Assembly: GCA_030692045.1 (NCBI GenBank) | Contig: JAUYCX010000119.1 | Span: forward strand, 25,688 to 89,687 | Reading direction: 5' to 3' | DNA from: Candidatus Omnitrophota bacterium | Lineage (GTDB): Bacteria > Omnitrophota > Gorgyraeia > JAUYCX01 | DNA length: 64,000 bases | Shown here: piece after piece, positions 11,719 through 64,000 of the stretch | Layout: each line of letters begins with the position of its first letter | Position numbering within the stretch: the first letter of the stretch is position 1 | Notes under the pieces: generated by a model | Told to the model about the DNA's origin: nothing | What the model saw: only the letters and a program-made list of their open reading frames with translations | Database searches by the model: none | Position numbers and translations under genes: made by a program

Positions 11719-11736
11719 GGGGGTGTAAATAAGACA

Positions 11737-12066: not shown

Positions 12067-12121
12067 AATCGCGCAAGGTTTGAAAACGATGCTAAAAGGG
12101 GTAAGTGTGGATAGGGTTCAT

Positions 12122-12493: not shown

Positions 12494-12497
12494 GTCA

Positions 12498-12830
12498 ATG
12501 AAAAATTTAAGGGCGCAAAGCTTAACAGAATATGTAATTGTTTTGGGGTTGGTGGTAGTTGCGCTTACCACTATGCAGGTTTATATGCGTCGGGGTATTC
12601 AAGCAGTAGTTAAAGTTTCTGCAGATGAATTAGGCTTCCAGCAAAATAGCGAGGATGTGCTTGACCCGGCTAAGCAGGGCTTTTTAAGGAGCTTTCACTC
12701 TCAAGTTAATTCCCAAAGCCAGCGTCGAATGGTGGGTGTCCCAGGAGTTCTAAATAAAGATATTGATGAAAGTAGCACTTTTTCCTTAAATGGTATATAT
12801 TTTTTGGGTAATGAGGAGAAAAGTTTGTAA
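12498..12830 (+). CDS. Flp/TadE-like pilin (start re-assigned from 12435)
   Basis: MKNLRAQSLTEYVIVLGLVVVALTTMQVYMRRGIQA. Confidence 0.78.
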   Translation: MKNLRAQSLTEYVIVLGLVVVALTTMQVYMRRGIQAVVKVSADELGFQQNSEDVLDPAKQGFLRSFHSQVNSQSQRRMVGVPGVLNKDIDESSTFSLNGIYFLGNEEKSL

Positions 12831-13151
12831 ATGGATAAACACGCGCAGATTAGTTTAGAGGCAATTATCTTGATTATCATTGTGGTAGCCGCGCTTCTTA
12901 CTATGGATATTTATTTAAAACGCGCTATACAAGGTAGATGGCGAGGGGCTTCTGATGAGATAGGCGAGCAATACGAATACGGACATACCAATAGCGATTT
13001 TACGTTTAGCGTAGTAAGTAATACCGAAACGTTAATTAGTACTGAAGAAACTCGTCAAGGGGAAGGCAATGTCGTGATTACTACCAACAGAGTTGACTTA
13101 ACTGATATGTCAGAAACCAAAACAGGCACAGAATATGTGGAAGGTTATTAA
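12831..13151 (+). CDS. Flp/TadE-like pilin
   Basis: HAQISLEAIILIIIVVAALLTMDIYLKRAIQGRWRGASDEIGEQY. Confidence 0.78.
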   Translation: MDKHAQISLEAIILIIIVVAALLTMDIYLKRAIQGRWRGASDEIGEQYEYGHTNSDFTFSVVSNTETLISTEETRQGEGNVVITTNRVDLTDMSETKTGTEYVEGY

Positions 13152-14331: not shown

Positions 14332-14545
14332 GGCGCAGGTAACCATAGAATTTACCTTTTGCTTGGTAATAGTGGTCTTGCTTTTTATTGCCTCTTTTTA
14401 TGCCCTTATTTGGGGAGTGGATATTTTGGTGGTCAGAACAACTAATTATGAGGCAAGTATGATTGGCGGTCGTGACCAGGTGGTTAAGGAGGATTTTTAT
14501 ATAACTCCTCCAATGAGTATAATACCCTTGATAAATCGGGAGTAG
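14294..14545 (+). CDS. TadE-like pseudopilin (start re-assigned from 14276)
   Basis: SD AGGAG at 14281; KAQVTIEFTFCLVIVVLLFIASF. Confidence 0.72.
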   Translation: MWEKRVSGKRLIKAQVTIEFTFCLVIVVLLFIASFYALIWGVDILVVRTTNYEASMIGGRDQVVKEDFYITPPMSIIPLINRE

Positions 14546-14557
14546 AGAGGTATTGGA

Positions 14558-16561: not shown

Positions 16562-16758
16562 TAAAGAAAAATAAAGCCAGCTTTGCCATTGAGTATTGTA
16601 TGCTGATTATAATATTGGTGGCTGCGCTTTTATTGATGCAGTACTATATTATTCGAGCTTTTGCTGGCAGATGGAGAACAACCGGCGATGTATTTGGTTT
16701 TGGCAAGCAGTATGAGCCGGATGTAACTGTGGTATGTGAGGGTGAGGAATGTCCATAA
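16549..16758 (+). CDS. Small Flp/TadE-like pilin
   Basis: KASFAIEYCMLIIILVAALLLMQYYIIRAFAGRWRTTGDVFGFGKQYEP. Confidence 0.72.
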   Translation: MSILIKKNKASFAIEYCMLIIILVAALLLMQYYIIRAFAGRWRTTGDVFGFGKQYEPDVTVVCEGEECP

Positions 16759-18982: not shown

Positions 18983-19021
18983 AAAATGATTACACAGAGA
19001 TTTCTGAAAAAAGATAATTTA

Positions 19022-19211
19022 AACACGAATGGACACGAATTACACACAAATGTCCACGAATTTAATATTTTTTGCCTAATTTGTAAGCAGATTTTAAAAG
19101 TGTTTATTAGCTTTGATGAAAACAATTTTAACACGGATTACCACGGATTTTTTACGGATTTACACGGATTTTATCCGTTAAATCAGTTCTTTTATCCGTG
19201 TATATCCGTGT
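19022..19211. repeat. CACGAAT and CACGGAT/ATCCGTG palindromic short-unit repeats
   Basis: Repeated CACGAAT at 19022-19061; ACGGAT x4 followed by ATCCGT x3 at 19130-19211, just upstream of the giant ORF. Confidence 0.75.
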
Positions 19212-19243
19212 CTAAAAATTAATTTTCAACAGTCTCAAATAAG

Positions 19244-22200
19244 ATGGACCAAGGAAGTAACAGACAATCTGAGAGCCAAGATACGATAGGCAAGAAGCCA
19301 TTTAAGAGTAGCTTTAAGAAGTGGCTTAGAATAGTTGCCTTGATTATAGTGGCTGTGTTTTTGCCTGAGCAGGTTTCCTGGGCAATTGAATATAATCCTG
19401 CTGTGCTCTGGAAGAATCTTATTTTCCAAGGAGCCAACTATCAGCATAACTTAGCCGCTAATTTTAAAATACCTAACCAGAATGTCAAGGTTCCCAAAGA
19501 GCTGATTATTGCCGAAAATGTCAGGCAAACTTTAAAGCAGTTTGCATACAAGACTATAAAGGATGTGCAACTTGCACCCAATCTAATCATTAGCCCTGCC
19601 AATGACGAGGGAGTCTTCTTAACCTCAACCAAAATCCAGAAAATCTATGAATGGTTAATTGACCCAGAAACTAAGCTAATTAACTGCGCCTCCCAATCTT
19701 TGCATTTCATTGATGTTCTCTTAAGTGGCTATGGAATAAAGGCTTCCATTGAAGAAATGTCCATTCTGGCAATCCTCACTGATATCCTTTCTGGCAATAT
19801 TGAGGAATATAAAGGAAGATTATATTTATCAATGTATAGTATTATGCAGGTTGCCAGGAATTATGGCTTAGACCTCTATCCCACCAAAATAACTCCTGAT
19901 TATTCTACTTTAAAAGCCTTACGAACACCATTTATTGCGCATTTTAATCAGCCCAAACATTTTGTGTTAGTTACTGCAGTTACTGAAGAAAAGGTTTGGA
20001 TGATTGAGCAAGGAAATACCCCAACATTCCTGCCTTTAGAGAAATTCTTCAAAGAAATAAGCGGCTATGTTTTAGTCGGCAAAGCTGATAGCCCCAAAGG
20101 CCTTTCCTTAGTTACGCCTGAGCAAGCCAGAGAGGTTTTTGGCGCTGGCAGAAATGATGTTTACAGATTCCGTACTCAGGACTTAAGGCAATCTCGGCCA
20201 ATAATTAACAATAACTATCGGACTAATAGTAGATTTGCCTCGGCAATGCCAAATAGATTTGCCTCTCCTATACCTCGCACAAGTTTACCTAAAATAAGTC
20301 GGTCTAACTATGTTCTGCCTCGACAAAGCCCGCCTCAACTTAGCAGGCCTGCTTCTATTAACCAAAGTAGAAATGCTCTTGCGTATAGCAGAAGTGCGCT
20401 GGCTTATAATTATGGTAATGCATATAGCAATTATCGAGGCGGTGTTGGTGGCAGAGTAATCTCTGGTGGAGGTAGCAATGGTCGGATATTTGAAGACCGT
20501 TCAAACCTATTAAGAGGACCGAGCATGTTTGATGTTTTGTTAGGTAGTTTGATAAGTATTGGATTTGCCTTTATACCAGTGCCAGGAGCCCAAGCTGGAA
20601 TCCTATCTAAAATTCCTATGGCATTTACAATGGGGCTTTCTGATTTTACCAGTGCATTCGCCGCTTATGGTGTTTATAAATGGGGTTGGGACCCTGCCTG
20701 GGCGCAGTTTGGAGCAATGGTTACTAACATTGCCATACCTATGGGTATGCAGAGGGTTATGGCGCCTCGCTTGGAGAACTTGCCTGCTGGTTTTATTGGA
20801 CCACGCAACATTTTGCCTAAGACTCTGGGCTGGGGTTTAGCTGAATTGGGCAAGGGTTTTGCCATGGGTGTTTTAATGGGTTCAATTAATGCCGGCACAA
20901 CCTTAGTAGTTCAAAATGCTTTAAAGGGTTGGAAGACTAATCCCGCAGTAAAACAGGCAATGATTTCTCTATTAGGCACAGCTATTAGTGTGCCTGTGGA
21001 GTCTTTTGTTTTAGGCAGTTTAGGTGATAAGAGTCATTTTGATTATAAAGATAAAAATGGAGAATTTCACAGCCCTAATTTTAAAAATGAGTTGTTTAGC
21101 CTAAGCAATGGCTGGCAAGCTCTAAAATTCAGTCTTAAAAATCCTGAGTTTCAGAATTTTATGATTTCTGAGTCAGTCTCTACGGGAATTATATATGGCG
21201 CCTACAAAGCTGGCAAGATGAATTCTCCTAACAGTTTGATTTTAGGCAAGAGTATTGGGCAGGGTCTTGGCCAGTGGTTGGGAAATAAATATTCGCCTAT
21301 ATATAATCCCAAAACCGGTAAGTTGACAGAAAATAAATGGGTAAATCTCCTGATTAATAGTTCGCTTTCAGCAGGAGCATCAATTGCCTTAAGTTCTTGG
21401 CAAGGCAAATATATCAGCAATTTAGGCAGATACGAGAGGGGAAATCTTACGCCTTTGCAAGTTGAATCCATTAATTTCTTAGCCACAAATTTATTGTCCA
21501 GTTCTATATCAAGCCTAAGCGGAATAAGCCTAAACGGTTTGGAGAAAGTTGAATTTTGGGGTGAGTTCAAAAAGAATTTCATAAATGCCGCAGAAAATTA
21601 TCAAACTGTAGGCGGCTCAGCAGAATTTATGGCGCTTGACCCTCTCTCCACTACTGAAAATTATTATAGATTTCAGGTTGCCAGCAATATTTTTAGATTG
21701 AATAGATATGCGACGAATCTAAATGATATGGCGGGAATTTTGGATTTACCTCAGCGCGCAGATAAAATCTGGCGCAGAATGGAAAGGGAAAATAAAAGAT
21801 TGTCACAGCCCCTCTCTGATAAAGAACTGCGCAAAAAATGGCGCGAAGCAGTTAGCGAAGATATTAAAAGTAATGCCGGCGTAATGAAATACACCACCTC
21901 TGTTTTGCACCAGCAGGCAGTGCAGAATTTAACTGCACCCATAAATCTGGGCTTGCAGCTTGGCTTAGGATATTTAGGTCGTCGCATAGAAGCAATCCCT
22001 CATTTTGGTAAATATTTAAGATTTGAAACCGGCGGCTCTGTGAGAATTAAGCGCTCAATAGAAAAAGATATGTTTCAGGATGCCTTTCCTGCTCTGGATG
22101 CAGGTAGAATTACGCAAGAAGGTGGCAAGTTATTTTATACAGAAGAAGCAGATGATACGCCCAAGGAAATAGCTAAGTTATATCCAGAGTTACATTCAGA

Positions 22201-34200: not shown

Positions 34201-37200
34201 TTATGATGTAGGAATAAGCAGCCAGAAATTTGAGGCAATGGCTAAGGTTTATAAAGTAGCCAAAAAAATAGACCCCTCATTGAGATTAGTTATGCGTATG
34301 CCAGTTGAAAGCTATTCTTCAGGCAATTTGCTTAGAGAAATTGTCTCTAAATTAGACCGCAGCGCTTTAGAAAAACAAGGCAGGGCTGATGTATTTGATA
34401 CCTTAGATAGAATTGCCACTGCCTCCCAACAAAGAGCGCCAACTCTTGCAGATGCGCAAACAGTTGCCACTGCAATGAGAATTTCTCCTGCCGAGGTTAT
34501 TCCTCTATTTACTTCTGCCCTTCCCCTTGAAATATTGAATAGACGTTACACCAACCTACAAAATTTAGGCATAGATTTATCCCGCACCAGCATAACTGTG
34601 GATGATTTAGTTAGAGGCAGGATAGATTTTGCTAAGAATTCACAAGCGCCTGAATTATCTGCTGCCTGGAATGATTTGCAAAAGACTCCCCCTACTCCTG
34701 AAACAATCTTAAGAATTGCTAATAGGCACAGCATTAGCGAAGAAAAAGTGCTTTTGCTGCATTTTGGCTTAGATTTTGATTGGAGCAATCCTGATATCCA
34801 GAGAAATTATCAAAAAATAGCACAAATAAATAGTGCTTTGGCTAAACGAGAAAGCACAGGTGAAGAATTAAGATATCAAGATGGCTCTGCGTTTAGAGTC
34901 AACATTTCCTCAATTCATACAGGAAGGTTTGGCTGGCAAACAAACGATGTTCCTTTTGAGTTTAATCTTGATGATATGCTTACTTTGTCAAATGGCAGAG
35001 TTATCGTCGGACAAGATGGAAATCGTCAAGAAATTCCGGTTGTGTGGGGTTTTAATGGTAAAACAAAGGGAGAAAGTCCGCTTAAGGATTTGCTCAGACC
35101 AAATACTATTCCTTTCCACAGAGTTGTTGATTTACAGAAGCATGTCAACAATTTAGGCATTTCGCCAAACGGAATTGGGAAAATTCAGATTGGCATTGGC
35201 TCACGGCAAGAAGCAAGTTTTGCCTTTGGATTAAAGGGCGAAGATGGCGCAAGAATACTTTATCTTCATCCTTCTATTTTAAGAAATCCAGCTCTTACAA
35301 AACTTGCCATTGATTTTGGTTTTAATGGTCATAATGGTAGAGCCCAGAATATTAAACACACAGCCAAGGCATTATTGAAGTTTAGTCATACTGCTGATAG
35401 CAAAGATTTAGGGATAAGTAGTATTGATAAATTAAGACAGGGTTTAGAAATAGATTTATCCGCAGGAAGAAAGCATCCTTCCAACACAACCATAAAACAA
35501 GCTGTGAGTGTGGCTGTGGCAATGTTGCCAGGAAAGAGCGCAACTGGTTCAGTAAGTAGAATTGCTGATGAGTTGTATACAGAATTAAGTAGAGCTGATA
35601 GCCTCATAAAACTCAAACCTACAGAAACTGCTCCTGCACCTTCGCCTGCTGCAGCAACTCCTCTGGAGCAAAGGGTAAAAGAAATTATTCAATTAGCCGC
35701 AAAGCTTGACCAGGCGCCTTCTGATACGCCTGCAGGTTTAGAAGAATCGCAGCAAGTCTGGAGAGAGTTTGAGCAATTAGCCCGAGAGAATATGCAGTTA
35801 ACCCAACAGGCATTGGCTTTAGCCGAGGAGCATGTGGGAAATAGGGGGGGGAAAATTTCCTTAGATGTCTTTGGATTGGAATTGGTGAATATGGAGAAAA
35901 TGCCAGCACCAGTCCCTGAAGTGCCAGAAGCACCAACTCCTGCACCAGCTCCGACGCCAGCACCACAACCAGCGCCCAGAATTGACCCTATTTTAGCCGC
36001 AACTCCGGATGGCGAGTATCTTCCGATGGGCGGTTTCTGGAGGCTTTGGGCTGGCAGCGGATATTCACCTGCACACGAACAGGGCTGGAAACTGCATGTA
36101 GCATTTACTGAACAGGATGCGGCTGATGTTCTTTCTGCAGTCTTGCCAATTCTGCAAAGAAATAATATTCCTCATAAAGTTGTAAATGACGTAGAAAAAT
36201 TGCGAGAAATAAATAACCCGACTTCAAGCGGCGAAACCCAGATAGGCAAGAATATTGCAATATATGCTGTAGAGGTTAACGACCCCTCGGATAGAGAGGC
36301 TGTGGAACAGGCCAGGCAAAAAGCACGTGGATTAGCATTAGAGATAGATCAGGCGTTAAGAGGCAGGGGATTTAGAGCCCCTGAAGGCCTTGTCTGGGAT
36401 GCACAGGGCCAAAGAGGAGATAAACTTATCTCCGGTGGAGAAAGCGGATTAGTCGGGTATAGATTCGGTTCTTTCAATGATTATAAAGTAATAGACAGGT
36501 TTGGAAATGTCCAGCCAGACGAGCGCGATAGGTATAAATTAGCGCATGGCCTTACAAATGTAACCTTGACTCCTCCTAAGGCACCACAAGCACTAGCTCC
36601 AAAAATTCCAGAAGCACCCACAACACCAGCTCCTGCGCCAATGCCTGCCCTGAGCAGCGTCGAAGGGCCAGCGCCAGCCGATGAATCCTCATCGGTGCGG
36701 TCGGTAGAACTTGATGGGTCTGAGGTGCTAAGGAAGGTTGTTGATAGAGCGCTAAGGCAGGAAGACTCACCTCCAACAGCTTCAATGCCAGCGCCAGCGC
36801 CTCAAGCGCCAGAAGCGCCACAAACCGCCAAACCACAAAAACCCTCAGGCACTAATGTGGAATTTCTTGGCTTACAAACCTTGTATGAATGGTTAGCTTA
36901 TTATACAAAATTAGCTATTTGGAATATAAAGCAGTCTCGTACAGCCAAATCAGAAGTTTCTCCAGCTGCTGCGAAAAAGCCTTCCCCTGCTCCACGTATT
37001 ATAGGCAAAGCTCCTGGCCAGCGGTCCCCTGACACCGCGTCGCCGGGTATTCCCCCCGTCATTACCTCACCAGCTGGCTGGAATTGGAACAACTTTATAC
37101 AAACGGCAAATAAAGATTTTCTCAAAGAAGGCCAGCGTGTTTTTGTAGAACGCTCCGAATTACCAGAACCCGCTACTGGCGAAGGCATTATTGTCCGGGA

Positions 37201-46200: not shown

Positions 46201-49200
46201 ATTCCCGCTTAGGTTAGATGAATATGAAAGTTTTAGAAATGACTTAACTGAAACGGCCTTAGAAAAATTAAGAAGATGGGTTATGTTTGTTCCGTTGATA
46301 ATAGGTTCAACAGTGATACTCATTTCAGAGGGAGCATATGTGTTTGTGGTAGGAGATAAAAATTCTGATTGGGTGCAGGCTGCACAAATTTCAGGCCTGC
46401 CACGTGCATTGATAGGCTTAATTATCTTACTGCCGCTTGTTACACTTGTTGCTTACGACATTATCAAATTTGTTAGAGAGGAAATTAAACAGAATAAAAT
46501 TATTGCTCAGTTTGAAAAAGGCGAAGAAAAGGGAGGTGCAAAATGGTTAAGATTAATTTACAGGAACTGGAATTTGACCACTTGGTTGAATTCAGCAAAG
46601 ACCGCACAATCTTTGCGGCAGCTCGCCAGAACGGTAGCGGCCACATTAGGCTCTTTCTTGTATTCCAAGACAATGGCAATGTCTACACCAGAAATGGCAC
46701 AGCAGACAGCTGGGAACAGCTCTTTGGCCAAGATGCTGAAATTGTTAGTGGCAAAATTACTCTCGCTCTTAACAACCATATCCCGGTTTACAAAGTCAAC
46801 GGCTCGCACGCTTAAAGAGAGTAAGCGAGCCGTTGACTCTTCTCGCGTTATTGAACTTACAATTGTAGCTCTATCGCCATTCCTTGTAGGGTTTAGCCAA
46901 GGAACAATCATTGCCGTTGTAATTCCTCTTGTGGCTACTTTCGCACTTTTACTCTATCTTAAACATCGTGCTGGTATGTTACCTTCCACAATCGCCCTTA
47001 TCTTAGGTGTTGGTATTGGGGTATCATTATGGCCGTTATTGTCTATCGTTATTAAATCACAACAGCCGATTCTTTCTCAGATAGCACAATTAGGATTAGC
47101 TTTATCCATTTTGGGTACTATCTTAAATGGATGGAGATTAAGACAATTAAGCAACCTCTCAATTTCTAAACTTATCGCGCCTTATAGTAATGATGAAGAC
47201 CAAACAACACTGCGCCAGCAATTCAAGTCTAACAACCTCTTCCAATATTATGCCAATGCTGTGATAATTGCAGCAGTTTCTATGGTCAGTAGCGTGATGC
47301 TTTTGTTAGTTAATTTACATAACCTCAGTGCGCAGTCATTAACTGCGCAAGGTTTAATCTTGGCCAAGATTGGTTTTGCGATGACAGTTGTGTCTTTGGT
47401 TATGGGCAATATTATTTTCCATAGAGCCGCAATAAGACATCAACAAGGATTAGTCACTACCGGCCTCTATTCTAAGGTAAGACATCCGATTTATTTAGCT
47501 TGGCTGGCGGGAATTTTAGGTATAGTGATGATGTTTCCCAATATTTACTCAGGTTTGTTCTTTGTAACCTTCCTAATTACAGCCAAGACAGAAGCCGTTA
47601 AAGAAAACATTGGTTTGTGGCTTGAGTATGGTCAAGAATATGCTCAATACACCCATAAAGTTCCTGCCTTAGAGCTGAGAGTTTTGAGGTTAGTGAAGAG
47701 AATACTGCCGTTTGTGATTATTGCAAGTGTTATTTTTGCCAACCCTGCCTTGTCAGCGCCAATGATAGATGTATCCCATTCCAACATCTGGGATATCTTA
47801 GGACCGATTAGCATATTGGTTTTCTTGGTGACTATGGCAAATGACCCGCCAAATGATGAGCGAAAGCCACGACGAGAATTTGGAACGAAGGATGTGCAGG
47901 ATCGTTTTCCAGACCTTGTTTCTGCTCGAACAATCGTCTTTAAGTGGAGGGCCCTTTACAAACTTGATTATGATGAAATCTGCTCTATTCTTGAGTTCAT
48001 TCAAGGTAACTTAGGGTGGTGGGAGCAGTTGGCGCACTCCGAGCCAATGAGTGGCACGCCATATAAACAAATCAAAGGTTTTCCAGCTATGGCCAGGGCT
48101 TATGAGAAAGTGGACCGAAGCTTTCAGATATTGCGAGGGCTCATCGAAGTCGTGCAGGAGGCCGTAAAGGAAGTTGAGGAACAGGTGGGATTCAAGAGCC
48201 TACCTCAGTCTTGGCGGTTTACTATGTTAGCGCTAGCTGCGAAAACATTGGATGAAAAACACAGTCTGGACGCTGTTCGGGATCATCTGACTGATGAGTA
48301 TATTAGGCGATTCGAGGAACGCAGTGAGAGCAGAGGTCAAAGGCTATGGAGCCATCCCATTGTGACCTTGGTTGCTGCCTTAATTACTCTCGCCTTGATG
48401 TACCCAACATCAGGTGCGGGCGTTGCAACAATAAGCGCAAATGGTTTGCCAGCGTTTATTACTAAAGTTGTGGTTATTTTAGGTATTCTAATGCCTTTTG
48501 GCCTCATTTTAAATAATAGGCCAGAAGAAAATAGATGGATAAGCGAGATAAAGCAAAGAATTGCTGAAATTGCCCAGAGACATCCTCGACAAGTAAAAGG
48601 TTTGGTAGCTTTTGTGGTTATATTCTTTTTGGAAAAATATTTGAGGCAAGGTATCGCAGAAAAAGTCGCAGCTGAAATCCAGGGTAGTCATAGACTAAGG
48701 GATTTAGAGACATTTCAACAGATACAGGGAGAATTCATAGAATATTTACAATCACATTCAGCAAGTCTATTGACCGCAATGGGTATTTCAATGTTTATAG
48801 ATGAAATTCAGAGAGACTTAATGGCTCTTAGAATATTAGCCGATAGCATAATTAATGAGGCATTGGCAAGAGATGTATCACTGCAGGGTCAATTAAGAGT
48901 TTTATCTGAGTTAACATTAAGGCATCTACAATCACCTTCCAATCCAAGAATACAACGAATAAATAGAAGCGCTTGGCGTATTGAAGTCGAAATAGCCAAG
49001 ACGCTGGGAATTTCTGAATGGTTATTTAGAGAAGGATGGGGGAGGGATTATGGCATTGAGCCAAGAAATGAGCCTCCTGCTGGACCTCAAGCTGGCGCAG
49101 TGCGGCACATAGTTGTGTTTCCTTTGATTGCTGTAGTGGGACTGGCAGGATTGTTGTTGACTGCAAGCGCAACTGTTGTTGGCACAGTGTTGCTTAGCGT

Positions 49201-52200
49201 TGCAGTGATTACAGCTCTTACGCTGGATTGGTTAAGGGACAGTCCCTATAAGTTACATAGAAGAGGGACTGTCCCCAAACTCTGGTCAGGCAAGGTTAGT
49301 CCTGCCCAAGCGCCGCCAACCCCTATTTCTCGCAAACCCTCACCTCTTGATCCTCGCTATGCTGAATTAGAAAACTACCCTCCAGAAATACTTCGCAATA
49401 TTGTCTTAAATGTATCTACAACAGAACCAGAAAAACCGCACCGCGTCAAAGGATTACTCTCCAGAATAAAGAAAATTTTCTTTATTGGTATATTATTACT
49501 AATTAATCTCTTTGCCGCAACAGCTCAAGGCGCGCAATTCTCAATGGATGCAACTGGTAACTTGTCTGTGCGAGTTGAATCAGGCGATACATTTGGAGGA
49601 ATAGTTCCAAAGATTAGAGGTACTCAACAGGTGGTTGCGCCTGAACAACGTCTTCCTTTATTTGTCGGCTCACTTTGGGGTCAAGATGGTGTTGTACAAA
49701 AGGTTTATGGAGAAATTAAACAGTCTAATCCGGATTTTGTGGATATAGATAAGATTCGTCCGGGACAAATAATATATTTACCCTTAGATTTGCCAGAATC
49801 TGTTAAACAAGCACTTGCTCCGCAACTTATGGAAGCTCTACCCACAGTTTTGGTAGCCGCTTCAAAGCCTGATTCATCAAAGGTTAAACCAGAAGCAGTT
49901 GCTGTTGCTTTGCTTGACACAGTTAAGATTGGCGCTACGGTTAAAGTGGTTCCAGATGCCCTTACCTATCCATCTAAAGTTAATCCTCCATCAGCACAGC
50001 ACATTAATTTAGCAATGGCTCTAATTGTAGGCGTGGGTCTTATCTTAGGAATTGCCATTGCCCAGTCTTTAAAATCCAGAATTTCCCGAGAAAAACCTGA
50101 GTTTATGAACATAGCTCCTGCGCCTATTAGCGCTACACATACAAGTGAACCAGCAGTTGCCACAATAGAAGAAGTACCAGCAGAAGCAAAGGCAGAAGCA
50201 GAGAGTGTGAGCATACAACCTTGGCCGACTGAATATGTTCCAGCTGTGGCGCCAGTTAATGCTGATGTTTTGCGTAGAATAAAAGAAGCCTTAGATTCTC
50301 CAGACACCAGATATTTAGAGCGCATTCGCGATGTAGAATGGCTCATTGATGATTTAAAGGCAATGCAGCAATTACTTGCGCCCGAGGATATTGAAGAATT
50401 AACACAATTATTAGAAAGATGTTTAAAAGATGATAGGCCGGGTTTAAAGATGTTAGCAATCGCTACTATTTTGAATTTGGGTTTACGGGCGACTAAAGAA
50501 GAAGCTGTCGAATTCTTAAATCACCACAAGAGAGAGTTATTGCCTCAGGTGAGAAAATTAGAAGCAGAAAGTAAAGTTTATCTGGAAAAAGCCCAGGCCT
50601 TTAGAAAACAAGCAGAGACAATTAAGGGGTTGGATGAATTAGATAAAGCCCGAACCGCCCAAGTAAGATTTGAGGAATTGATGTTTATTGCCGGCTGGAT
50701 AGGAACAGCTTTGGAAAAGATTGCTTTAGCAGAAGTTGCTTCAGAGGTTACTACAACAATGACTGCGGACTTAAGGCAAAACCCCTCCAATGACCTTAAG
50801 TCCGCAGAAGCAAATAAGCCAGGAGTTGAAGGCTTTACAACAATAGAAGTTAGCTTTGCATTGGCAATCTTGACAGCTGTTTATTTAATCAATCCTGTTT
50901 TGGGATTAGGTTTAGGCGCTGTTATGGTAGTTGCGGCTTTGGCAGCTAACAGAAGAACAGGCCTTAGGCGAAGTCGAAGCATTACCGCATTAGTGGGAGC
51001 TTTGGTAATATTATTATCTTCCCTTAATATTCAGGGTTGTGCCATGATGAAGCTTGGTAACACAACCCATCCAGACTATTCAACCGCAAAAGTGGATAGA
51101 GCTCTCTATGAACATCGTGGAGAAAACCCAGAAAACAATGCAACGCACCCTGATACAACTTCAAGCCAGCCAGTAGCTTTAGAAACTGAAATTAAACCTG
51201 TTAAGAGAACAGAAGTAGGGACGTCTTTGACGACCATCGGAAGGGTGTCCCCTGCAAAAGAAGTTAGGGACAGCCTTAGCTTGAGAGAGAAAGACGTCCC
51301 TACTTCAAACCAAGAAAAAACTGCACAGCCAATTAGAGCACCGCCAGTTAAACAAGATAATCCGTCGCCTCAAACTCAATACATAGTCAAAAAAGGTGAT
51401 ACACTTTGGAGAATTGTTGGTGCACAATGGCCAACAGTTTACAATGCCAATCCAGAAATCCAGAATCGTCCCGGCGAACAATTGGGTCCTCAATATCCTG
51501 ACACAAAACAAATCGTAATTATTTATCCAGATGAAATTTTAACACAGATTACACAGATTGAAACTACAGATTACACAGATACTGCAACCGCAAGGGACGC
51601 AAAAGAAAAAACAGAAGAAACCGCGGAAGCCGCAAAAGCTCGAGAAGACTCACTTAAAGCTGAAAAGGCAAAACAACAAGCGCAAGCCCAAGCCAAAGCT
51701 GAGCAAGCCGAAAAAGAGAGACAACATGCACAAGCCGCAAAAGCAAAACAAGATTCAGTTGAGACTGCAAGAATTATAGCCGCCAGACAAGATTCTTTAG
51801 AGGCTGCTAGAATGGCTGCACAGGAAACAGCTCAAGCCAAGGCTGATTCATTAGAAGCTATAAGAAGAGGACAACAATTTGATTTCTTAAAAAAGATTAA
51901 GCTTGCGTTATCTTCAGCTTTTGGTTTTAATCCCATATTTTTATGGGGCAGTTTATTTGTCCTTGCTTTAGCTTTAGTAGCTTATCGTATGCGAATGAAG
52001 AATGAGGCAAATGGCATAGCTGTTAACTCTGCTCCTAAACCTGCATCCAGAAGAAGAGTAAAAATTGATGCCTCCAGCGACCCAGTTAGTCCAGCTGTAG
52101 TCAAGCCACAACCAGCACGCAGAGCCACAAGACCCCAGTCTCGAAAATCTGCATCTAAGAAATTGCATCAACTGTTTAAACACAAAACCCTTGCTTATCA

Positions 52201-55200
52201 ATTAAAAAGCTTAGCTTTAGATTTAACTCCTTTTGCCTGGTTTGTCTTGGCTAAGTCAGCCAATATAGAACATTCTTGGTTAGCTTTGCCAATTATTGGT
52301 CTAATAAGATTTTTGGTTGTGTTTAATATGGTGACCAGCCACGAATCTGCGCACGCCAGTCAAGCTCTTGAGTATGGTGATACTACAGCAGATAGAATTA
52401 GCAGAAATCCTTTTACTCATCTGTATTGGAGATCCCGCGATGGCTTACCTGCCTTCTACAAAGTATTTTCCTTTATGGGCTCTACATCAATGCTTATTAC
52501 CTCTGTAATATTTGGCTTGCCTTTGGGTTTTGGTTCAGCCAGGCCAGTAGTATTTAATTCTAAACCAGATTATCAGGTAAGAAAGATAAAATTTGCTGGT
52601 CCAAAAATCAATTTAATTCGGGGACTTGTGGCTCTCGCTTTAGGCGCGCTGGCAGTAAAACTTGGCTTAGCTTATCAGGAATATTACATTCCAGTTTTAC
52701 AATACATCGCAATATTAGAGCTTATATATGCAGTGTTTAATTTAATACCTTTGCCTCCTGCTGACGGAGCTGTAGCGCTTTTTGGTAAAAGGGTTAATCA
52801 ATCATTAAACATTGGTGGTATGAATATTCCTGCCAATACCTGGGGTATTGCTGGATTAATTATTCTTTTGAAAACAGGAATTTTATTTAAGCTTTTTGCC
52901 GGCATTTTATTATTGGTAAATTATTTTATGCCCGCAGAGGCAGGATTATCCAGTTTAACCGATGGACTTATCAAGGCATCAATCATCACTTATATATTAG
53001 CTCATGCAGGGATGTTGGTAAAAGGAATTGCAGAACAGAAATCAGGGACGTCTTTGAAGAGCATCGGAAGGCTGTCCCTTTCAAGAGGTGTAGGGGACAG
53101 CCTTAGCTTGAGCGTGAAAGACGTCCCTAATTCAATGCTCAGGCAGCAGGCAGCTGTAAAGAAATTGTTGCTGTTAGCAGTTACAGGCTCTTTGATGTTA
53201 ATTGCTCAGCCAGCTTGGGCTGACACAAATCCTGGCTCGTGGAGCACTGGAGAAAATATTCTTGCCTTTGGGGGTATTTTGCTTGTGGCTCATCTGGTTT
53301 TGCGTTTCATTGTGAGCCTGATTGCCAAATTCAAACCCAGATTTACTCAAAAACATTTATTTACAATTCTCTTGCCATTTATGTTAGCGGTTAATCTCAA
53401 TTTGTCTTGGTCGCTAAGGCATCTTAATACGTTCTTTAGTTATTATTTCGCAAACCTTACTGATGCGGCGCTGGTGGCTAATGTTATTTTGGCTATTCGT
53501 GAAATGACTTCCAAACGATTATTGAAGCCAAGCACGCTGGTTAAATTCATTGGTTTGATATGGGTTGGTTCTATCATTTTTGAAGTAAGTTCAGGCTTAC
53601 AAAACTGGCTGGCACTTCACTTGATGGATAAAGAAATAAGACTTGTTTTCGGCCAAGGAGATATCGTAGCTTATGGCGCAGGTTTGTTATGGTTCTTACT
53701 GCATAGTTTACGCCAGCGTGCAGTAATTAATGCTAAGGTTCAAACTGTAAATAGAAGAACTTCCTCTTTTGTAAGACCAAGACAAAGCTCTCGTCGAGAC
53801 TTTGCTAAAGAGCTAAGAAACAATTTACCTTTTGGGCTAATGGTTCTCTTTGGCTTGGGTGTTTTGGCTACAACCTATTTATTTAATCCCACATTAATAT
53901 CTACCTTGGGCTTGGGTTTGATTTTTGGTTTAAGCAAAACAGATAGTGGTTCGCAGGATGAACATCACCACAGAGAATTAAAAGAGGCAAACGAATGGGT
54001 TGAAGAAGCGCGTCAGCATAGAAAGAAAAAAGAATATCAGGGTGCCATGGAATCTTATGAAATTGCAATAGAGCTTTATGGAATTGTAGCCAGTGGTTCT
54101 ATTGTGCCTACTGTTCAAGAGACTGCCCGTGGTAATTTAGCCCATGCTCGTAGAGAACTCCAGTCAGTTTTAGCCCAGATTGAACAGGCAATGTTAGATT
54201 TCATTGCTGATAAATTTGCTTATGCCAAAGCGCAGAAGGGCATTCGTGATTATGCTGCATTTAAGAGAGATTTAGAAGAAGAGCTTCTGAAAAAGGAGCC
54301 TGAAGGATTAGAAGCAATTTCTCAAAAAAGAAAACAGTCTATTTATAATAGCTCAGAAAGAATTAGACAAAGGTTAAGCCAAATCAGAGCGCCCGGCGTA
54401 TCCACAGAAGTGATACCGCGCAGGGTAGTTTATCAAATAAGAAAAGCATACTTTAATGAACTTTATGATGGCATTCACGCTGGGATAAAATCAATTTTCG
54501 TTCCCTTAGGGCAGAGAAGTTACTCTATTTCTGGTATGCTTTTTGATATTTTGGGAAGGAGAATTCCTGATAACGAAAGCGCCTTAAAAGCCTTATTTAA
54601 TGATGTTAACTTTAAGGATTCTATGGGTAAAACTCACCGTGCATTAGCTCGTCGGCTTAGGAAATTTGAAAGAGGAGAATTAGAAAAAAGCAAGGCAGTT
54701 CTTTACGATATTGCGGCATTAATCATTCGCGCAAATACTCGATTAGTTGAGGCATATCAGGGATTAGTTCCTGATTATGAATTGCCAGAAGTTGAGACAG
54801 TTAAGAAAGCGCCTAAGCCTACAGAGGAAGTTGTCATTCCTGATGCAGAGATAAGAGAGATTATTTTAGAGGCAATAGAAGAACTTTACAAGCTAAGAAG
54901 TAACTATGCAGAATATAGACTTTTCTATGAAGAGATTATCAGAGTAGTTAGTCAAGCTTTAGAACAAAGAGGGGTGTCTGAGGCAGGCAAACAAGTTCAA
55001 AGAGTAATTTCTCGCTCAAAGCCTATTAAAAAACGTTTAGCCCAGATAGAGCGTGAATTCTTAAGGCCAGCAAGAACAGAAGCAGTTGGGGGATTTGTAG
55101 ATTATTATGCAATTTTAGGCGTGGAAAAAGGTCCTTTAGCTAATTCCAGAGAGATTAATCGAGCCTTTGATGGTTTACCCAAAGACAGAAAAACTGAGCA

Positions 55201-58200
55201 AGCCTACAACGCCTGGAAGGCCTTACATGACCTTATAAAATCTAAACAGCAACCATCAGATAGACTTTCACCCAAACAAGCATATGACGAAGAATGGTAC
55301 ATCTTGCACCGTGAAACACACTTATCTTGGGCAAAGAAGGTTGATGCTAAATTAGGCACACACTATCTTGACAAAATTAGACCTCATAGAGTCAGAAGAC
55401 ATTTAGGCTTGATTGTACCTTTCTTATTGGCAACAGGATTGTTGGCGTTGTCAGTAGACAGAGTCTTTGGCGCAACAGAGAATTCTAATGGAATTTTTGA
55501 AATCAATTCCAATCTGATAACGCTCTCTATCGCGGTTATCATAGGCGTTGTGTTGATAGACCAACTTTCTAAGTTAATCATCAGGCTGAATTTGTCAGAG
55601 ATTATATGTGAAGATGAAGGGGATACGTATGTTCCTTACACAAATAAATCCCAACCATTTTCTAAGGCTATCATTCCAGGCGTATTGGACTTGGTGAATA
55701 TTAGGCATGCCAGAGAGAAGCTTTCAACTCAATTATCGCTCATGAGTTTATTATTAAGAATATTGATATTGGCCGGACTTTCATCTGCCATAGTGTGTGT
55801 TATTCAAGGCAATGGTAGAAAAGCCATTGTAGTTGGGCTTAGCTTAATGATAGGGGCAGCAATAAATGTATTATTTGACGATCTTAGAACTAAACCTCAA
55901 GGCTCAACAGATTGGATTCTGTTATTCGAGTCGCCGCTCTTTACTAATCTCTCTGATATTTTTGTAGATGCGAGTATAGCCTTAATCACAGTATCCCTTG
56001 TTGGCGTTGAACTTCTTTTTCCATCTTTTAAACCGCTACTCAACAATAACAGCTTCGTTGCCATTGCTACTGCTGGCTCAATTTTCGCAGCATTGGCATT
56101 TACTATTGGCAAGGCCCGATATTATTACTTCTTGGTGAATAGTCACAAAGAAACGGTCGTAATCGATGAGGCATTTTCCAGAATCTTGCGTTTCTTAGGC
56201 AAGGGCGGCAAGGCGCTTCGTATTTTGATTCCGTTTATCTTTATGACAATTGCCTCTGTCGGCAGGGCATTGGCTGGAACAGGTAATGCTATATCAACTC
56301 ATCCTTGGATATGGCTTTTAGTTGTAGCAGCTTTTGCTATTGTGGCTGGAGTTTATCCAAGAAATTCAAAAGCTAAACAAAGAGCTGATAGGACACCTAT
56401 TAAGCCACATGCGCCACCGCTTATTAGAAGACTAAGACAGTTGCCTATTGTCTTATTAGTTCTCTTACAATTAGCAACCGCACCTTTAATCTATATCAAC
56501 TTTACAAGGGATGTTTTTGCAGAGCAATCCCAAAACACAACCACAATTCTTGTTAGAGGTCCACCGGCATTAGTTAAGACAGAAGCGGGTTACTTGTTTG
56601 TTTCCCAAGAGGGTAAACCATCCTTACCTTTGGGTGGCGCTGCTTGGTTACTTAGCATTTGGCCGCTTTTGGTAGGGATAGCAATAGTTTTAATTCCATT
56701 ATTATACAGAACAGGAATTATTGTAAGAATAGTTAATGCCACCAAAACAAAGGCACAGGTTAAAGTTGCACCAGTAAGGGCAGGACCAGAAAATAAAATC
56801 GAGGAAGTTCACAAAGACAGTCCTGCAAGCTCACCCTCCGCACAAGCTGCATTTCTCGAGAGAGGTTCCTACCTTAAGTTAATCGAAAGATTGGCAGATA
56901 CCAGTGATGTGTCGCAAGCCACTCTTATGCAGGCATATTTAGACGCCAGAAAAGAACTCTATGAAGCCATTCAGTCAGAAGATGCAAAGTTAAGACAACA
57001 GGCGTTAGATATTTTTAGCTTAGTACATCAAGCATTAGAGATTTCTACTGTATCCAATGTTAGCCTACGGTGGGTTCATACCTTAAATAGATTTCAATTT
57101 GTGCATTGTAATATCTGCGGTTCGGAAGCTCATCTTCCCATCAGTGTATTCTTTATCAATGGTGTGGGTTTTGATATTGATCGATGTCAAAATTGTGGAT
57201 TATTCTTCGTTAATCCTCAGCCTTCAGATAGATTTTATACTGAGCTATACAGTGAAGAATATTTTACTTCAGGCGACGGTCAGGTCGGCTTTAATGGTTA
57301 TGAACACTCCAGAAGAACTACTATCGCGCGCCTACAATTAGATACGTTACAGCGATACGCGGAAAGAATCAGAGATTTCCTTGAGGTAGGAGGTGCTACG
57401 GGTTATGTATTAAGAGAAGCAAGAAATCGAGGTTGGAAGACCAAGGCGGTGGAAATTTCTGATTATTGTGCGGGTAAACTCAGAGAACAGGGTTTTGACG
57501 TCTATCAAGGTAATTTAGAGGAAGCTGGATATTCAGATGAAAGTTTTGATGCAATGGCTGGCTTTGACTTGTTAGAACATGTGCGCAACCCGTTTGCTTT
57601 CTTGAAAGAGGCAAATCGTATTTTAAGAAACGGTGGTCATATTATTCTGAGGGTTCCTCGCGTCCCTGACACTACTAAAGGACCAACTGTCCATTTAATT
57701 GATCATCTTTATCACTTTACGCCGGATAGTATTATTAAGTTATTGGAGCGTGCTGGCTTTGAAGTGGTAAATGTAGAAGATAGTGGCGCTTTCTATTCAG
57801 AAGAAGGCGTAGGCTTAAATTTAACAGTGGTGGCTTATAAACTTGACCCAGTTGGTTCTAAGCCAAAGATAAATGCAGTTAATTTACGCACAAATAGAGG
57901 CAGTTCCAATATTCATTATTTACTCGCCTCTGTTTTGACTCTGCCATTTTTGTTCTTACTAAATCGTTATATCTTTTACACAGCAGTTAATAATTTATTA
58001 TCACATAATCTCCTCGGTATACTTTCTTCGATACTTAATTTAGGCTTTTTCTACGTTCTGCTCTTCACAGCTACTTATAATATTATTACTACAATTTTGA
58101 TCCTCTTTGATTCAAGAACAAAAGGCTGGTTGAGTGAATCTAAATACGCCACCGCTATTCCCAAGTTTAAGCCCGAAGGTATGCCTTATCCAAGCCACAC

Positions 58201-61200
58201 AGTTATGGTGCCAGTCTATAAAGAAGATTGGGCAACTGTAAGAGAGACCTTGGATGCTGCCTTGGCAGCTACAACTAACTATAATCGGGTTGCCGGGGAA
58301 GGAAGAGGTAATATTGTTGTTTGTGATGACGGGCTGATGGTAATGACAAATAATCATCCTTTTGAGTTTATTGAGAGAGTAAAGGCAAAAAGAGTTGTAG
58401 GACTTGCTCTTACGCAGGTAGAACAGGAAGTTTTAAATCGGATTGAGTATTACCAGGCAAACAATATTACATGCGTGGCCAGACCAAAGCACCAGCCCGG
58501 TATATTTGAAAGAGCCGGACAATTTAAGAAAGGGACCAACTTAAATCACACTCATCTATTAGCTGATTTAATCGATGAATCAATGAATAGGGGTCTAAGC
58601 TATGCAGATGCGCTGGAAGAAGCACGCAATAATCCAGAATACAAAAACACCTTCATTATGGGCCAAGTGAACTTAGGAGAAGTAATGCTATTCCTCGATA
58701 AAGATTCCTTGATTGGCTCAGATATTATCAGAAAAGTTATGTCTGAATTCTTATTAGATACCCGTATCGCTGGTGTCGTAATAAGAGGCGCTGCCATTAA
58801 TGAGAATGAGAATGTTTTTACCTCTATTTATGGACAGGGAATGAAAGTATTCTTCTGGCCATTGACGAGATTATGGGCTAAATATGGAGCGAGCTTGTTT
58901 TATGGTAAAGGGTTCTTCAGGAGAGATGTATTAAGGAGGATAGGATATTGGCCATATAAGCAGGTTGCAGAAGACATGGTTGCATCTTTTGGCGCCATAA
59001 CGCTTAAAGATGAAGCCAGAGGAGAGAATTATTACTTTAAGTTTGTGGATTATCCAATGGAAGCGCTCAAAGAAGGTATACCCAATCGACCGGTGTCTGC
59101 AATTATTCAATTCCGTAAATTTACCTATGCTTCGCTTAATGCGGTTTTTCGTCCTCTAAAAGAGTGGTTACTGCATAGCCCATTCCAAAGAGTATTTATA
59201 GATCTCTTAAAAGATAAAGGAGTACGCTGGGAGCAGAAAATTCATATTCTTTATACATTTAGCTATTACTTGAACTCTCTATTTATCATTGGTGTTTTCT
59301 TTAAGCACCTTATCTTCTCATCGCTTTTGGGTATTCATTCCAATCATACTTGGCATTTGTTGTTTGGAATATTTGTAGGTTCTATACCATTTACTACCAT
59401 TACCATCGCTTCTTACATTAAAGCCTGGAGAGTGAATAGAGAGACATTCTCATCGGTTAAATTTATCGGAAGAATTATACCTCGCGCATTACTTGTTTAC
59501 TTTGCGTTAATCGTATTCTTCTTAGGAATGGGTTTCCATACCTTTACTTCTGCAAGTAACTACTTGGTATTTAATAAAAAAGTTATCTTTGGAACTACGC
59601 CTACAGATAAAGAAGATTTTCGTCCAGTTAGAGAGATTGCGTCCGATATTGCAAGACAGCTTAAGCCAGGACTTATTACAAGTTTAATTTATTTGGTCTT
59701 GGCTATCGTAGCCCTTGGTTTGGGCCGCTTCAATGCCACCGAGCTGTACTTGGTAGTTCCTGGCTTATTGAGCAGCGTCTCAGCGATTATCGCACCTTTT
59801 GCTTTTGATGCGCAATTGATGAGGAAGATACGTCAGGAAATAAAGAGTAGTGTTTCAAATTTACTCGGTAAGATATCTGATCGATTCGGTAGATTTAGAC
59901 TTGGACTTAGATGGAGACCTGGCGTTGAAATTAGCCCACAGCCAGTAATGGTGACAGAAAATTTATGTTTCAGGCCCAGAGTTATAATGAGAAGTCAAAA
60001 GGTAACGCCTATAATAAGGACTATTCTGTTTACGATACTGCTTAATCTTCTTCCTGCGAATGGCCGTTTTGTTACCCTAGCCGAAGAGCAAAATGTAATA
60101 GTTGTAGTAATGCCAACGCCGCAGTTGACAGAGCTAAAAACAATTGATACTAATGCAGCTTATCAGTGGATTAAATCCCAAATTCATCCTAAAACAGGAC
60201 TGGTAAGGTCATTTGAAAATCTTCCCAAGGAAGACCCATCTTTTGGCGTAACCTGGACGTATAATCAGGCGCAAGCTATACAAGCTGCGCTTGCCCAAGG
60301 CGATGTTAGAACTGCCGAGCGCTTAGCTAAAGCAGCATTGAGATTAAAGAAGAATAATGGCGCTTGGTTTGGCGCATATGTCACAGAAACCGCTGAAGTA
60401 GCCACAGCTCTTCCAGAACAAAAGACCAGCGCAGTTGGATTTAATCTGGCTATGGGACATTCTCTGTTAAATCTTTTAGAAAAGACAGAAGATAAAGACT
60501 TAGCCGCACAAATTATCAGCGCTGTTATGGATTTAGCAGGGTGGTTAAATTATTATTATCGTGATGAAGGTAAGTATGCATTTGTCACTAACGCAGAGAA
60601 TAATAATGGCGTGCGCACAGAATTTAATGAGCGCACCTTTGCCTTCTATTATCAGCTGTATAACCAGTTTAATAACAGGCAACATCCTTATAGGGCATAT
60701 TTAAAGGAAGCGATAAAGGTAAAACAAGCCCGGGAATTAAAGACAAGAGCAGATAAGATTGTCAAATGGCATCAAGAGAAGATGTACAACCAAGAAAAAG
60801 GCCGTTATGAAGCTGGATATAAAGATGCCGATAGTAAAGAACTCATTGAAGAACTTATCGCAAATCTTCCTAAAGATGACCCGCGATACTGGGCAAGAGA
60901 TATGTGGGGCTATCCGCAATACTTAGCTCCAATTATGGCATCTGTGGCAGGGCTTAATCCCCAAGATTTTGCCGGCGGACTGGATTGGCTCTTAGCCCAT
61001 CAATCTACCGTTGAAATTGACGGCAAAACCTATAAAGGTTTCCCGCGCTGGTTAGGCACTCCTTCTTTATGGGGTAAAGGCATATCAGAAGCAACTGTGG
61101 CTTTGCAATTAGTTGGACGCAACAAAGAAGCAGAAGAATTGTTATTGACATTATCTGCAATGCAGCAGGAAAATGGCAGTATCTTAGAGGCAGTAGGTGA

Positions 61201-64000: not shown

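Follow-up and report, generated by a model that had tools for sequence, protein, structure and literature searches.

A giant Omnitrophota gene downstream of tadC encodes a conserved C39-type head with a candidate self-cleavage junction

The 64,000-nucleotide stretch of Candidatus Omnitrophota DNA analysed here (the window; positions 25688-89687 of contig JAUYCX010000119.1, hereafter C51, in an assembly of 2,187,264 bases and 119 contigs) carries, directly downstream of tadC, an open reading frame (ORF) that leaves the window without meeting a stop codon. The explanation that we favour as a whole, at a probability of about 0.6, is that of a giant gene of the class published for Omnitrophota, standing last in a Tad/Flp locus, whose product would be anchored in the membrane by a C39 protease head that cleaves its own chain. 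The class, the N-terminal C39 domain and the link to Tad genes are already known; what we add is the boundary between head and junction and the depletion of cysteine, which make cleavage testable.

The frame opens with an ATG at position 19244, eight codons after the nearest in-frame upstream stop (19220), and runs unbroken in frame +2, with no N, to the last base of C51, that is over 18,015 codons. Its length is at least 44.8 kb within the window, and C51 as a whole raises this minimum to 54.0 kb. The remaining five frames hold 718-1,703 stops each over the same stretch (4.0-9.5% of codons). Given that base composition predicts a stop at 6.5% of codons, 18,015 stop-free codons have a log10 P of about -528, and a chance origin of the open frame is untenable. 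GC content at the three codon positions follows the coding pattern GC1>GC2>GC3 in all 6-kb bins but the last, partial one, and codon usage is that of the rest of the genome (relative synonymous codon usage, RSCU, r = 0.968; GC3 0.324, where the background has 0.325 +/- 0.049). A Logan contig of 41,591 nt, assembled independently from the one run that contains this DNA and is probably its source, has 0 differences over positions 1-13,720 of L082 (the end of C51) and reaches 27,871 nt further upstream, covering the window from ~25,420 to past 64,000, with 19,244-25,420 outside its span; it breaks at a tetratricopeptide repeat (TPR) array. A low-depth joint in one contig of the Logan comparison (7854>15781) probably reflects a repeat or another organism and was disregarded.

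These results bear out a preliminary description of the window, made from its letters alone, which had proposed a single stop-free frame of at least 44.7 kb directly after tadC. From the ATG at 19244 the window holds 14,919 codons, two ORFs with T2SSF domains precede them, and no terminator-like site lies between tadC and the giant ORF. In-frame stops in frame +2, named there as a possible refutation, are absent to the end of the window and on to the end of the contig, and the worry about a chimera is answered over ~25,420-64,000 by the Logan contig with its 0 differences. The extension that it called for succeeded in part, as the frame could be followed to the contig end, over 18,015 codons, and the stop was not reached on C51.

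Conservation in the encoded protein is limited to residues 1-301. An alignment of six heads used as query of public genomes gave 68 related loci, where a scan of public-genome contigs with the single protein had found no relative; residues 1-300 are matched in 66-68 of the 68 loci, and positions beyond 300 in only 0-3. The head consists of a basic stretch, a transmembrane (TM) helix, a small subdomain (residues ~80-144) and a C39, or double-glycine protease, fold (residues 145-281). The region of the TM helix carries an invariant motif, F39-x-P41-E42-Q43...A47..Y50, in an alignment of 65 rows, 61 of them different, and the head TM segment is present in 47 of 47 related frames of at least 1,000 residues. 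The AlphaFold2 model computed from these rows has a mean predicted local distance difference test (pLDDT) of 79.8, with values of at least 88 across residues ~80-300. Searched against the PDB, the head profile matches 6mpz_A at 1.1e-07 with the Cys and His motifs aligned. For the predicted model, Foldseek ranks double-glycine proteases first (TM-to-target 0.66-0.72, probability 1.00), and VIA-align gives 6mpz_B as the best match (Z 12.8, root-mean-square deviation 2.2 A over 121 residues), with PCAT1 and ComA next. Cys148 and His239 are each present in 65 of 65 rows. Position 255 is acidic in 53 of the 65 (47 Asp, 6 Glu; Glu in the window protein), and its distance of 16 residues from His239 equals that between His101 and Asp117 of LahT, as described in PMC6363468. 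The head thus appears to have a C39 fold with the full catalytic set of Cys, His and acidic residue, and protease activity is predicted.

The fold is that of the C39 domains of ABC-transporter maturation and secretion (AMS) and PCAT exporters (LahT 6mpz, PCAT1 4ry2/8vp5, ComA 3k8u/5xe8; Z 11.8-12.8), and the Cys in a C-G context, the His in an H-[FY]-V context and the acidic residue 16 past the His are common to both. Unlike in those exporters, the domain here stands behind a TM helix, an additional subdomain (residues 80-144) lies ahead of the fold, protease and putative substrate site belong to one polypeptide, and no ABC transporter domains follow; Pfam matches no membrane or ATPase domain of ABC type, either in the first 1,500 residues or later. 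Two other interpretations of the N-terminus were rejected: a likeness to Flp_Fap, as the first 100 residues have no Pfam match at E<=1, and a class-III signal, as 'AIEY' stands after the hydrophobic helix and not before it.

At its C-terminal end the head closes with a motif in which the 65 rows have Leu, Ile or Val at -12 (38, 17 and 9 rows), Ser or Thr at -11 (25 and 16), Asp at -10 (32), Glu or Gln at -8 (44 and 10), Ala or Ser at -7 (37 and 15), Val or Ile at -4 (35 and 29), Gly at -2 (62 of 62 ungapped rows) and Ala or Ser at -1 (42 and 10). Conservation stops after position -1. The consensus of double-glycine leaders, as given in PMC6363468, is Leu(-12)-X3-Glu(-8)-Leu(-7), Val(-4), Gly-Gly/Ala/Ser; the junction resembles it in the hydrophobic residues at -12 and -4, in Glu/Gln at -8 and in Gly-Ala/Ser at -2/-1, and differs from it in Ala/Ser at -7. 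Residues 291-300 are modelled with a pLDDT of 95. With a query of 3,700 residues, the alignment to the other head stops exactly at residue 301 in 19 of the 68 loci; in 40 it stops within 298-305, and in only 3 does it pass residue 330. The three closest heads (40-47% identical) end at 301 with no detectable similarity after it; matches in the body come from more distant heads, such as 834 residues at 27% with L058, which belongs to the other main head clade, and these few matches do not follow the head tree. On the strength of these sequence features we propose, tentatively and at not quite even odds, that the protein would cleave itself at 301/302, after A301.

The protein is also nearly devoid of cysteine. 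Its first 8,200 residues contain two, one of which is the catalytic C148, where the background is 1.33%. Related frames have 196 Cys in 164,757 residues (0.119%), as against 1,583 in 110,212 (1.436%) for the flanking ORFs, a 12-fold depletion throughout the family that offers a simple marker of the parts likely to be exported. The whole C51 ORF (18,015 residues) has 30 Cys. Four of these form a CxxC...CxxC pair at residues 12,622-12,651 (window 57107-57196), right before a Methyltransf_23 domain, which suggests a zinc ribbon retained in an otherwise Cys-poor protein.

We assign the gene to the giant-protein class published for Omnitrophota, and within it to a C39-headed, multi-enzyme, membrane-threaded type. 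Of 40 related genomes, 15 match its first 1,500 residues; apart from a few patches the matches cover residues ~7-318 only, and they stand at the start of open frames of up to 12,652 residues. In the 68 loci the head always precedes a long frame, which stays open to the locus end in 64; the four that close early resume in a different frame, at an N gap in three cases and at a frameshift in one. Among proteins of 579-2,000 residues, a homolog search found two partials named 'cysteine peptidase family C39 domain-containing protein'. The records of 52 of the 68 loci are titled Candidatus Omnitrophota or Omnitrophica; metagenome bins under the labels Planctomycetales/-ia, Deltaproteobacteria or Ignavibacteriae make up the other 16. 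Head rows from genomes of the same order and the same class are identical to rows of Omnitrophota-labelled records, and the head tree places the window protein in one group with three Omnitrophota records (support 100/94). The assignment to an Omnitrophota giant-gene class tied to Tad or type II secretion system (T2SS) genes, already suggested in the preliminary description, agrees with these named relatives and with the published giants. As in that class, the ORF exceeds 20 kb (and 10,000 residues, the limit of the 2026 catalogue cited below), many TM segments are present (77 segments with a Kyte-Doolittle (KD) value of at least 1.6 in the C51 ORF, and 178 when all pieces of the gene are counted; these numbers come from a crude KD hydropathy scan, not from DeepTMHMM), and a T2SS/Tad-like system precedes the gene, with the upstream TadC kept in relatives.

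The main text of Seymour et al. (2023, PMC10066038) reports that most Omnitrophota classes have giant ORFs above 20 kb along with Tad genes, and that peptides support a protein of 39,678 residues in V. archaeovorus. That of West-Roberts et al. (2023, bioRxiv 10.1101/2023.11.21.568195) describes giants with an N-terminal C39, many TM segments and divergent domains, with SecA_DEAD in most full-length members, a preceding T2SS-like system and possible cleavage. The catalogue of Nielsen and Lui (2026, bioRxiv 10.64898/2026.06.07.730766) lists 916 proteins, among them a 'multi-enzyme' class and a cluster of 24 proteins with PF03412 (C39), and Tad genes in the flanks. With the Archaeovorin-type giants of West-Roberts et al. 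and the giants of Seymour et al., as their texts describe them, the present gene shares the phylum, a length above 20 kb, a domain-poor N-terminus in which a C39 domain lies close to a signal or TM segment, a large number of TM segments, divergent methyltransferases, peptidases and TPR, and a T2SS/Tad-like system ahead; unlike them it has sigma-70-like, RelA/SpoT, LspA-like, Rce1-like and radical-SAM modules. HEAT, glycosyltransferase (GT5/GT1), glycoside hydrolase and NUDIX families, which with SecA_DEAD serve to define Archaeovorins, are not among the Pfam matches listed for the ~43.7 thousand residues of all pieces at E<=1e-3 (39 overlapping segments, with E<=1e-2 for the window part; in one segment the best 25 of 41 families, all TPR-like, S8 or PG_binding). 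The dockerin and TSP3 repeats of the dockerin-type giants (West-Roberts et al. 2023) likewise have no Pfam match in the assembled pieces. Likeness to the multi-enzyme giants of Nielsen and Lui, as presented in the catalogue, lies in the many Pfam families that tile the protein with none dominant, in signal-peptidase-II and methyltransferase content, in a TM or signal peptide plus TM topology, and in Tad/T2SS and transposase genes in the flanks; their sugar-metabolism and kinase clusters are not seen here. In the parts drawn on here the catalogue covers architectures, and neither the head/junction boundary nor Cys depletion. The main texts of Seymour et al. and West-Roberts et al. name no cleavage site, and the words 'cysteine' and 'sigma' occur 0 times in the main texts of both giant-gene preprints. 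Within the literature searched (main texts, with the original V. archaeovorus study outside it), 'double-glycine' is absent from the Omnitrophota giant-gene papers, and 'Velamenicoccus' and 'C39' co-occur only in the two giant-gene preprints.

How long is the gene? Among the stop-free frames of at least 1,500 residues in the whole assembly, a single giant is complete at the 5' end and open at the 3' end, that of C51 (18,022 codons from stop to contig end), and a single 5'-open giant reaches a stop, on the minus strand of C76 (14,198 residues). Contigs C97 (5,502 residues), C52 (5,012) and C10 (1,194) are open from end to end. C97(+) and C76(-) share an exact 70-nt overlap in frame, which gives 19,677 residues up to the stop at positions 79,773-79,775 of C76. 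The last 158 residues of C10 and the first 158 of C97 are 90.5% identical, and this difference of ~10% implies that the sample or bin contains the giant gene in more than one strain. The end of C51 and the start of C52 have in common a repeat family of ~110 residues and an exact match of 21 nt. The last 131 nt of C51 (L082 19870-20000) lie within a 273-nt Logan contig at ~306x depth, as against ~14x elsewhere; they are a high-copy or widely shared repeat that probably caused the assembly to break. If the pieces form one gene, their lengths sum to 18,015 + 5,012 + 1,036 + 19,677 = about 43,740 residues. That the five contigs represent one gene of about 43.7 thousand residues is the simplest reading and, we think, somewhat more probable than its opposite; the firm lower bound is 18,015 residues. 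A gene of at least 18 thousand and plausibly ~44 thousand residues would in the latter case take up about 6% of the 2.19-Mb genome.

Putting these observations together, we propose that the giant gene would be co-transcribed with tadB-tadC and that the TM helix of the head would act as a signal anchor with its N-terminus inside. The flank ahead of the helix is net positive, from which the positive-inside rule predicts this N-in orientation, and the C39 domain and the arm behind it (residues 302-6,865) would therefore lie outside the cytoplasmic membrane. The C39 domain would cut the junction after A301, either within its own chain or in an adjacent molecule of the protein. The cut would free the N-terminus of a hypervariable, Cys-poor surface arm, which would remain tethered through a TM-rich region of enzyme modules further downstream (the raft). 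In line with the published view of the class, the product may work at the surface, in contacts between the cell and others.

Four alternatives bear on this proposal, two of them on the gene and two on its processing. We hold it very probable that the stop-free frame is a genuine single giant gene of the published Omnitrophota class, and can give hardly any credence to an assembly chimera or non-coding artefact. In favour of an artefact are the origin of the sequence in a metagenome bin and the breaks of Logan contigs within the TPR array; against it stand the P of about 1e-528 for the open frame with its coding GC pattern, family domains that are in frame all along, the 41.6-kb contig of a second assembler with 0 differences, and the same architecture in 68 other loci. 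A weightier alternative, though on balance we doubt it, is that the five contigs are two or more giant genes or strain variants, with a true length nearer 18-25 than 44 thousand residues. No sequence overlap was found between C51 and C52 or between C52 and C10, so that the gene is not closed; the C10/C97 overlap is only 90.5% identical, the depth at the C51 end jumps to ~306x, and the bin, 95.7% complete, has 7.5% contamination. These facts are set against a single 5'-complete giant start and a single giant stop in the whole assembly, a head search of the genome that matched C51 only, the repeat family common to the C51 end and the C52 start, and codon usage that is alike in every piece and shared with the genome (RSCU r = 0.94-0.98, GC3 0.30-0.36).

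As to processing, the head protease might act on other substrates, such as small double-glycine peptides or Tad partners, or merely tether the protein as the non-catalytic C39-like domain of HlyB does, with residues 290-301 as a structural tail. The account of West-Roberts et al. (2023) allows both options, the residue at -7 is Ala/Ser instead of Leu, the motif starts just nine residues past the end of the C39 fold and may be a structural element, and C39-like domains score too (3zua Z 11.4, 3b79 Z 12.3). We nevertheless consider it rather unlikely, because all 65 rows have the catalytic Cys and His, whereas C39-like domains lack the Cys (as described in PMC6363468), because the motif agrees with the leader consensus at -12, -8, -4, -2 and -1 in the right polarity, and because similarity among relatives stops at the G-A pair. 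The giant might also be a polyprotein, an operon without stops that its own C39 and S8 peptidases dice at many sites, an idea raised in the 2023 preprint and compatible with a first cut at 301. Besides the C39 domain at the head there is a Peptidase_S8 module (1.7e-17) in the C51 tail, and the unrelated modules keep their catalytic motifs. Leader-like motifs in the body are not above local shuffles, however: the relaxed double-glycine pattern occurs twice in the C51 ORF (2.2 expected) and once in C97+C76 (1.9 expected), and the minimal GG pattern 7 times in the body (15.1 expected). Since these motifs are not enriched, repeated dicing by the C39 domain is unsupported. The S8 peptidase, whose sites are not predictable, might still dice the chain; a polyprotein as a whole we judge unlikely. 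The favoured explanation as a whole has to face, beyond the open joins, the contamination, the strain mixture, the residue at -7 and the closeness of motif and fold, several further points that weigh against it. Canonical C39 domains are cytoplasmic and fused to ABC transporters, and none follows here. The topology rests on the positive-inside rule and the crude hydropathy scan, and modules of cytoplasmic type (RamC_N-like and sigma-70-like) lie inside the supposedly exported, TM-free arm. SecA_DEAD has no match at E<=1e-3 in the assembled pieces, between which the gene has unassembled gaps; the genome's only PF07517 match is the canonical SecA, a 995-residue frame on C84. No RNA run is listed as containing the C51 tail.

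Giant Omnitrophota genes are known by the thousand. Missing information on cleavage points blocked structure analysis in the 2023 preprint, by its own account. It is possible, though we lean slightly against it, that C39-headed giants share across the phylum one maturation cassette, made of an F-x-P-E-Q anchor helix, a C39 domain and its own double-glycine site, which would launch and then release a hypervariable Cys-free arm beside TadB/TadC, with bodies as exchangeable cargo and with ordinary genes, a sigma factor for instance, captured in single lineages. If so, whether and where giants are cleaved would get a precise first answer for the whole phylum, namely after residue 301. A head of 301 residues with a leader-type cut motif where similarity ends also brings the question down to an expressible construct of ~330 residues instead of an unwieldy protein.

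Features of the window and of the giant protein, with window positions, residues, strand and basis
Feature	Window position	Residues	Strand	Basis or remark
RcpC/CpaB	414-1310		+	Pfam RcpC 3.1e-27
Secretin with C-terminal TonB_C domain	1307-3010		+	Pfam Secretin 2.5e-43, TonB_C 5.5e-12
TadZ-like ParA/MinD ATPase fused to TadA/CpaF T2SSE ATPase	3012-5168	718 aa	+	T2SSE 6.2e-60, CbiA/ParA
IS200-like Y1 transposase	6677-7363			between tadZ/A and pilin genes
ORF with transposase-type helix-turn-helix	7487-9280	597 aa		between tadZ/A and pilin genes
At least 8 Flp-type pilin or pseudopilin ORFs	within 10299..16758		+	Q-S-T-x-E-Y motif, then hydrophobic stretch
TadE/G-like ORF	14558-16561	667 aa	+	weak Pfam Tad 1.5e-3
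tadB, platform protein	17005-17853		+	T2SSF 3.3e-19
tadC, platform protein	17987-18982		+	T2SSF 4.1e-11
Intergenic region	18983..19243		+	four ACGGATT copies about 10.3 nt apart (19133-19170)
Giant ORF, window part	19244..64000	14,919 codons	+	ATG start, no stop within window; ORF listing with open ends
N-terminal TM helix	19319..19384	26-47	+	KD segment 22-40; AlphaFold2 helix 26-47; basic stretch before
C39 (double-glycine protease) fold	19676..20086	145-281	+	Pfam PF03412 1.6e-09
Junction motif	20111..20146	290-301	+	[LIV](-12)-[ST]-D-x-[EQ](-8)-[AS]-x-x-[VI](-4)-x-G(-2)-[AS](-1)
Arm: orphan, TM-poor, Cys-free	20147..39838	302-6,865	+	
Gly-rich hydrophobic block 1		~400-780		two hydrophobic segments
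~100-residue unit, three copies		922-1025, 1666-1758, 1995-2096		chunked all-vs-all blastp
Gly-rich block 2		~3460-4410		
RamC_N / LanL-LanKC N-terminal-like module	36026..36505	~5,595-5,754	+	Pfam RamC_N 1.6e-11
Sigma-70-family module, regions 2-4, and diverged duplicate	38420..39841	~6,393-6,586 and 6,696-6,866	+	Sigma70_r4 4.4e-11
Membrane-threaded multi-module region (raft)	39839..64000	~6,866 onward	+	about 67 of the window part's 70 KD>=1.6 segments
Methyltransferase module		~7,009-7,104		
TPR module		~7,449-7,499		
ICMT-like module		~9,373-9,442		
M50-like module		~11,125-11,180		weak
LspA-like Peptidase_A8	55538-55999			
CxxC..CxxC + Methyltransf_23	57107-57772			
Two Big_5 domains	~62264-62941			

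The arm has hardly any relatives. Pfam, NCBIfam and PHROG give no family match over residues ~300-5,590, and in the first ~7,500 residues PHROGs match the sigma and methyltransferase modules only. An exhaustive HMMER search with residues 900-2,099 in 1.84 billion representatives returned just two weak matches (2.8e-07 and 9.1e-05); residues 780-1,980 compared with proteins of 5,500-17,500 residues gave 1,953 candidates, none at E<=1e-3, and for residues 3,460-4,410 the best ESM Atlas score is 0.82, under the useful range. Single-sequence AlphaFold2 models residues 1,600-2,399 at a pLDDT of 31, with just two of the ~100-residue repeat units reaching 59-75, values too low to bear on the beta-rich region of the preliminary description or on the published antiparallel beta-helix. 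The longest stretch without a KD>=1.6 segment runs over 6,294 residues (572-6,866), and residues 300-1,000 are without a strongly hydrophobic segment in 34 of the 47 relatives that have at least 1,000 residues. The preliminary description had called the protein not repeat-built, and chunked all-vs-all blastp indeed finds scattered local duplications only, namely the ~100-residue unit in three copies, the duplicated sigma-like unit, the two Big_5 domains and TPR arrays. Its account of two Gly-rich hydrophobic blocks stands for 20520-21540 (14% Gly, two KD>=1.6 segments) and in part for 29640-32460, which is Gly-rich (10-15%) but only mildly hydrophobic, with seven segments at KD>=1.2 and none at 1.6. 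The scaffold of ~5,400 residues that it described is a long N-terminal part without family matches; the TM-free part runs further, to residue 6,866.

Two modules are embedded in the arm. The RamC_N-like module also matches NCBIfam lanthi_synth_IV (3.4e-14, far under the curated cut-off). The sigma module covers positions 4-163 of the 165 of sigma70-ECF (7.4e-10) and is thus near-complete, just ahead of the first TM cluster. A search for it in 200 genomes of the class matched 58, all in ordinary frames of 190-399 residues; the embedded module looks like a lineage-specific capture.

In the raft, about 70 hydrophobic segments of the C51 ORF alternate with modules, and the unrelated enzyme and membrane modules expected after the N-terminal part are recovered as Pfam/NCBIfam matches and KD segments. 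Over all pieces, further modules are methyltransferases, TPR arrays, PG_binding_1, Peptidase_S8, B12-binding with radical SAM, HD_4 with RelA_SpoT, Ig-like Por_Secre_tail/FlgD_ig, guanylate-kinase-like, FAD-binding, amino-acid-kinase, Rce1-like and GNAT. The modules retain their signature motifs: the Asp motifs of the LspA-like module align to the stand-alone copy, LEVGGATG follows CxxC..CxxC, and a CxxxCxxC is present. Stand-alone copies score 125.7 bits for LspA and 155.4 bits for guanylate kinase, as against 35.1 bits for each embedded copy. By sequence comparison, the embedded copies are divergent paralogues of ordinary enzymes and regulators. For RelA_SpoT the 95.7%-complete assembly has a single match, inside the giant frame beside HD_4 (C97:9878-10237), and no stand-alone copy was found.

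The locus ahead of the giant gene has RcpC/CpaB, secretin, TadZ/TadA, TadB, TadC and several Flp-type pilins, all co-oriented, as in classical Tad/Flp (type IVc) systems. Unlike in those, a TonB_C domain is attached to the secretin, TadZ and TadA form one fused protein, transposase-like genes lie within the locus, the prepilin peptidase match is on another contig, and a giant gene, unknown in classical loci, follows tadC. Peptidase_A24 (TadV) has no match among the window ORFs scanned, and the genome's single PF01478 match is on contig C9. The transposase genes inside the locus echo the transposase-rich flanks reported for other giants. Family support for the pilin ORFs is weak (Pfam Flp_Fap 3e-4), and several of the pilin-like ORFs, at 106-398 residues, are longer than classical Flp pilins. 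Three ORFs, starting at 11873, 13135 and 14558, are found again upstream in related loci. In 47 of the 68 related loci TadC precedes the head in the same orientation; of the 53 loci with at least 3 kb upstream, 43 have it.

The intergenic region between tadC and the giant ORF holds four of the five copies of ACGGATT in the window; ACGAAT-type variants precede this array and three inverted ATCCGT copies follow it (19025-19212). The array may bind a regulator. It is not general in relatives: of 59 upstream regions only that of the window has four copies, and a different 7-mer is seen in L024. At the other end, the giant's stop on the minus strand of C76 (within 70000-82369) is followed directly by the gene of a 1,539-residue protein with a C-terminal Hint/intein-like domain, then by those of two small PilZ proteins and of a GH94 phosphorylase.

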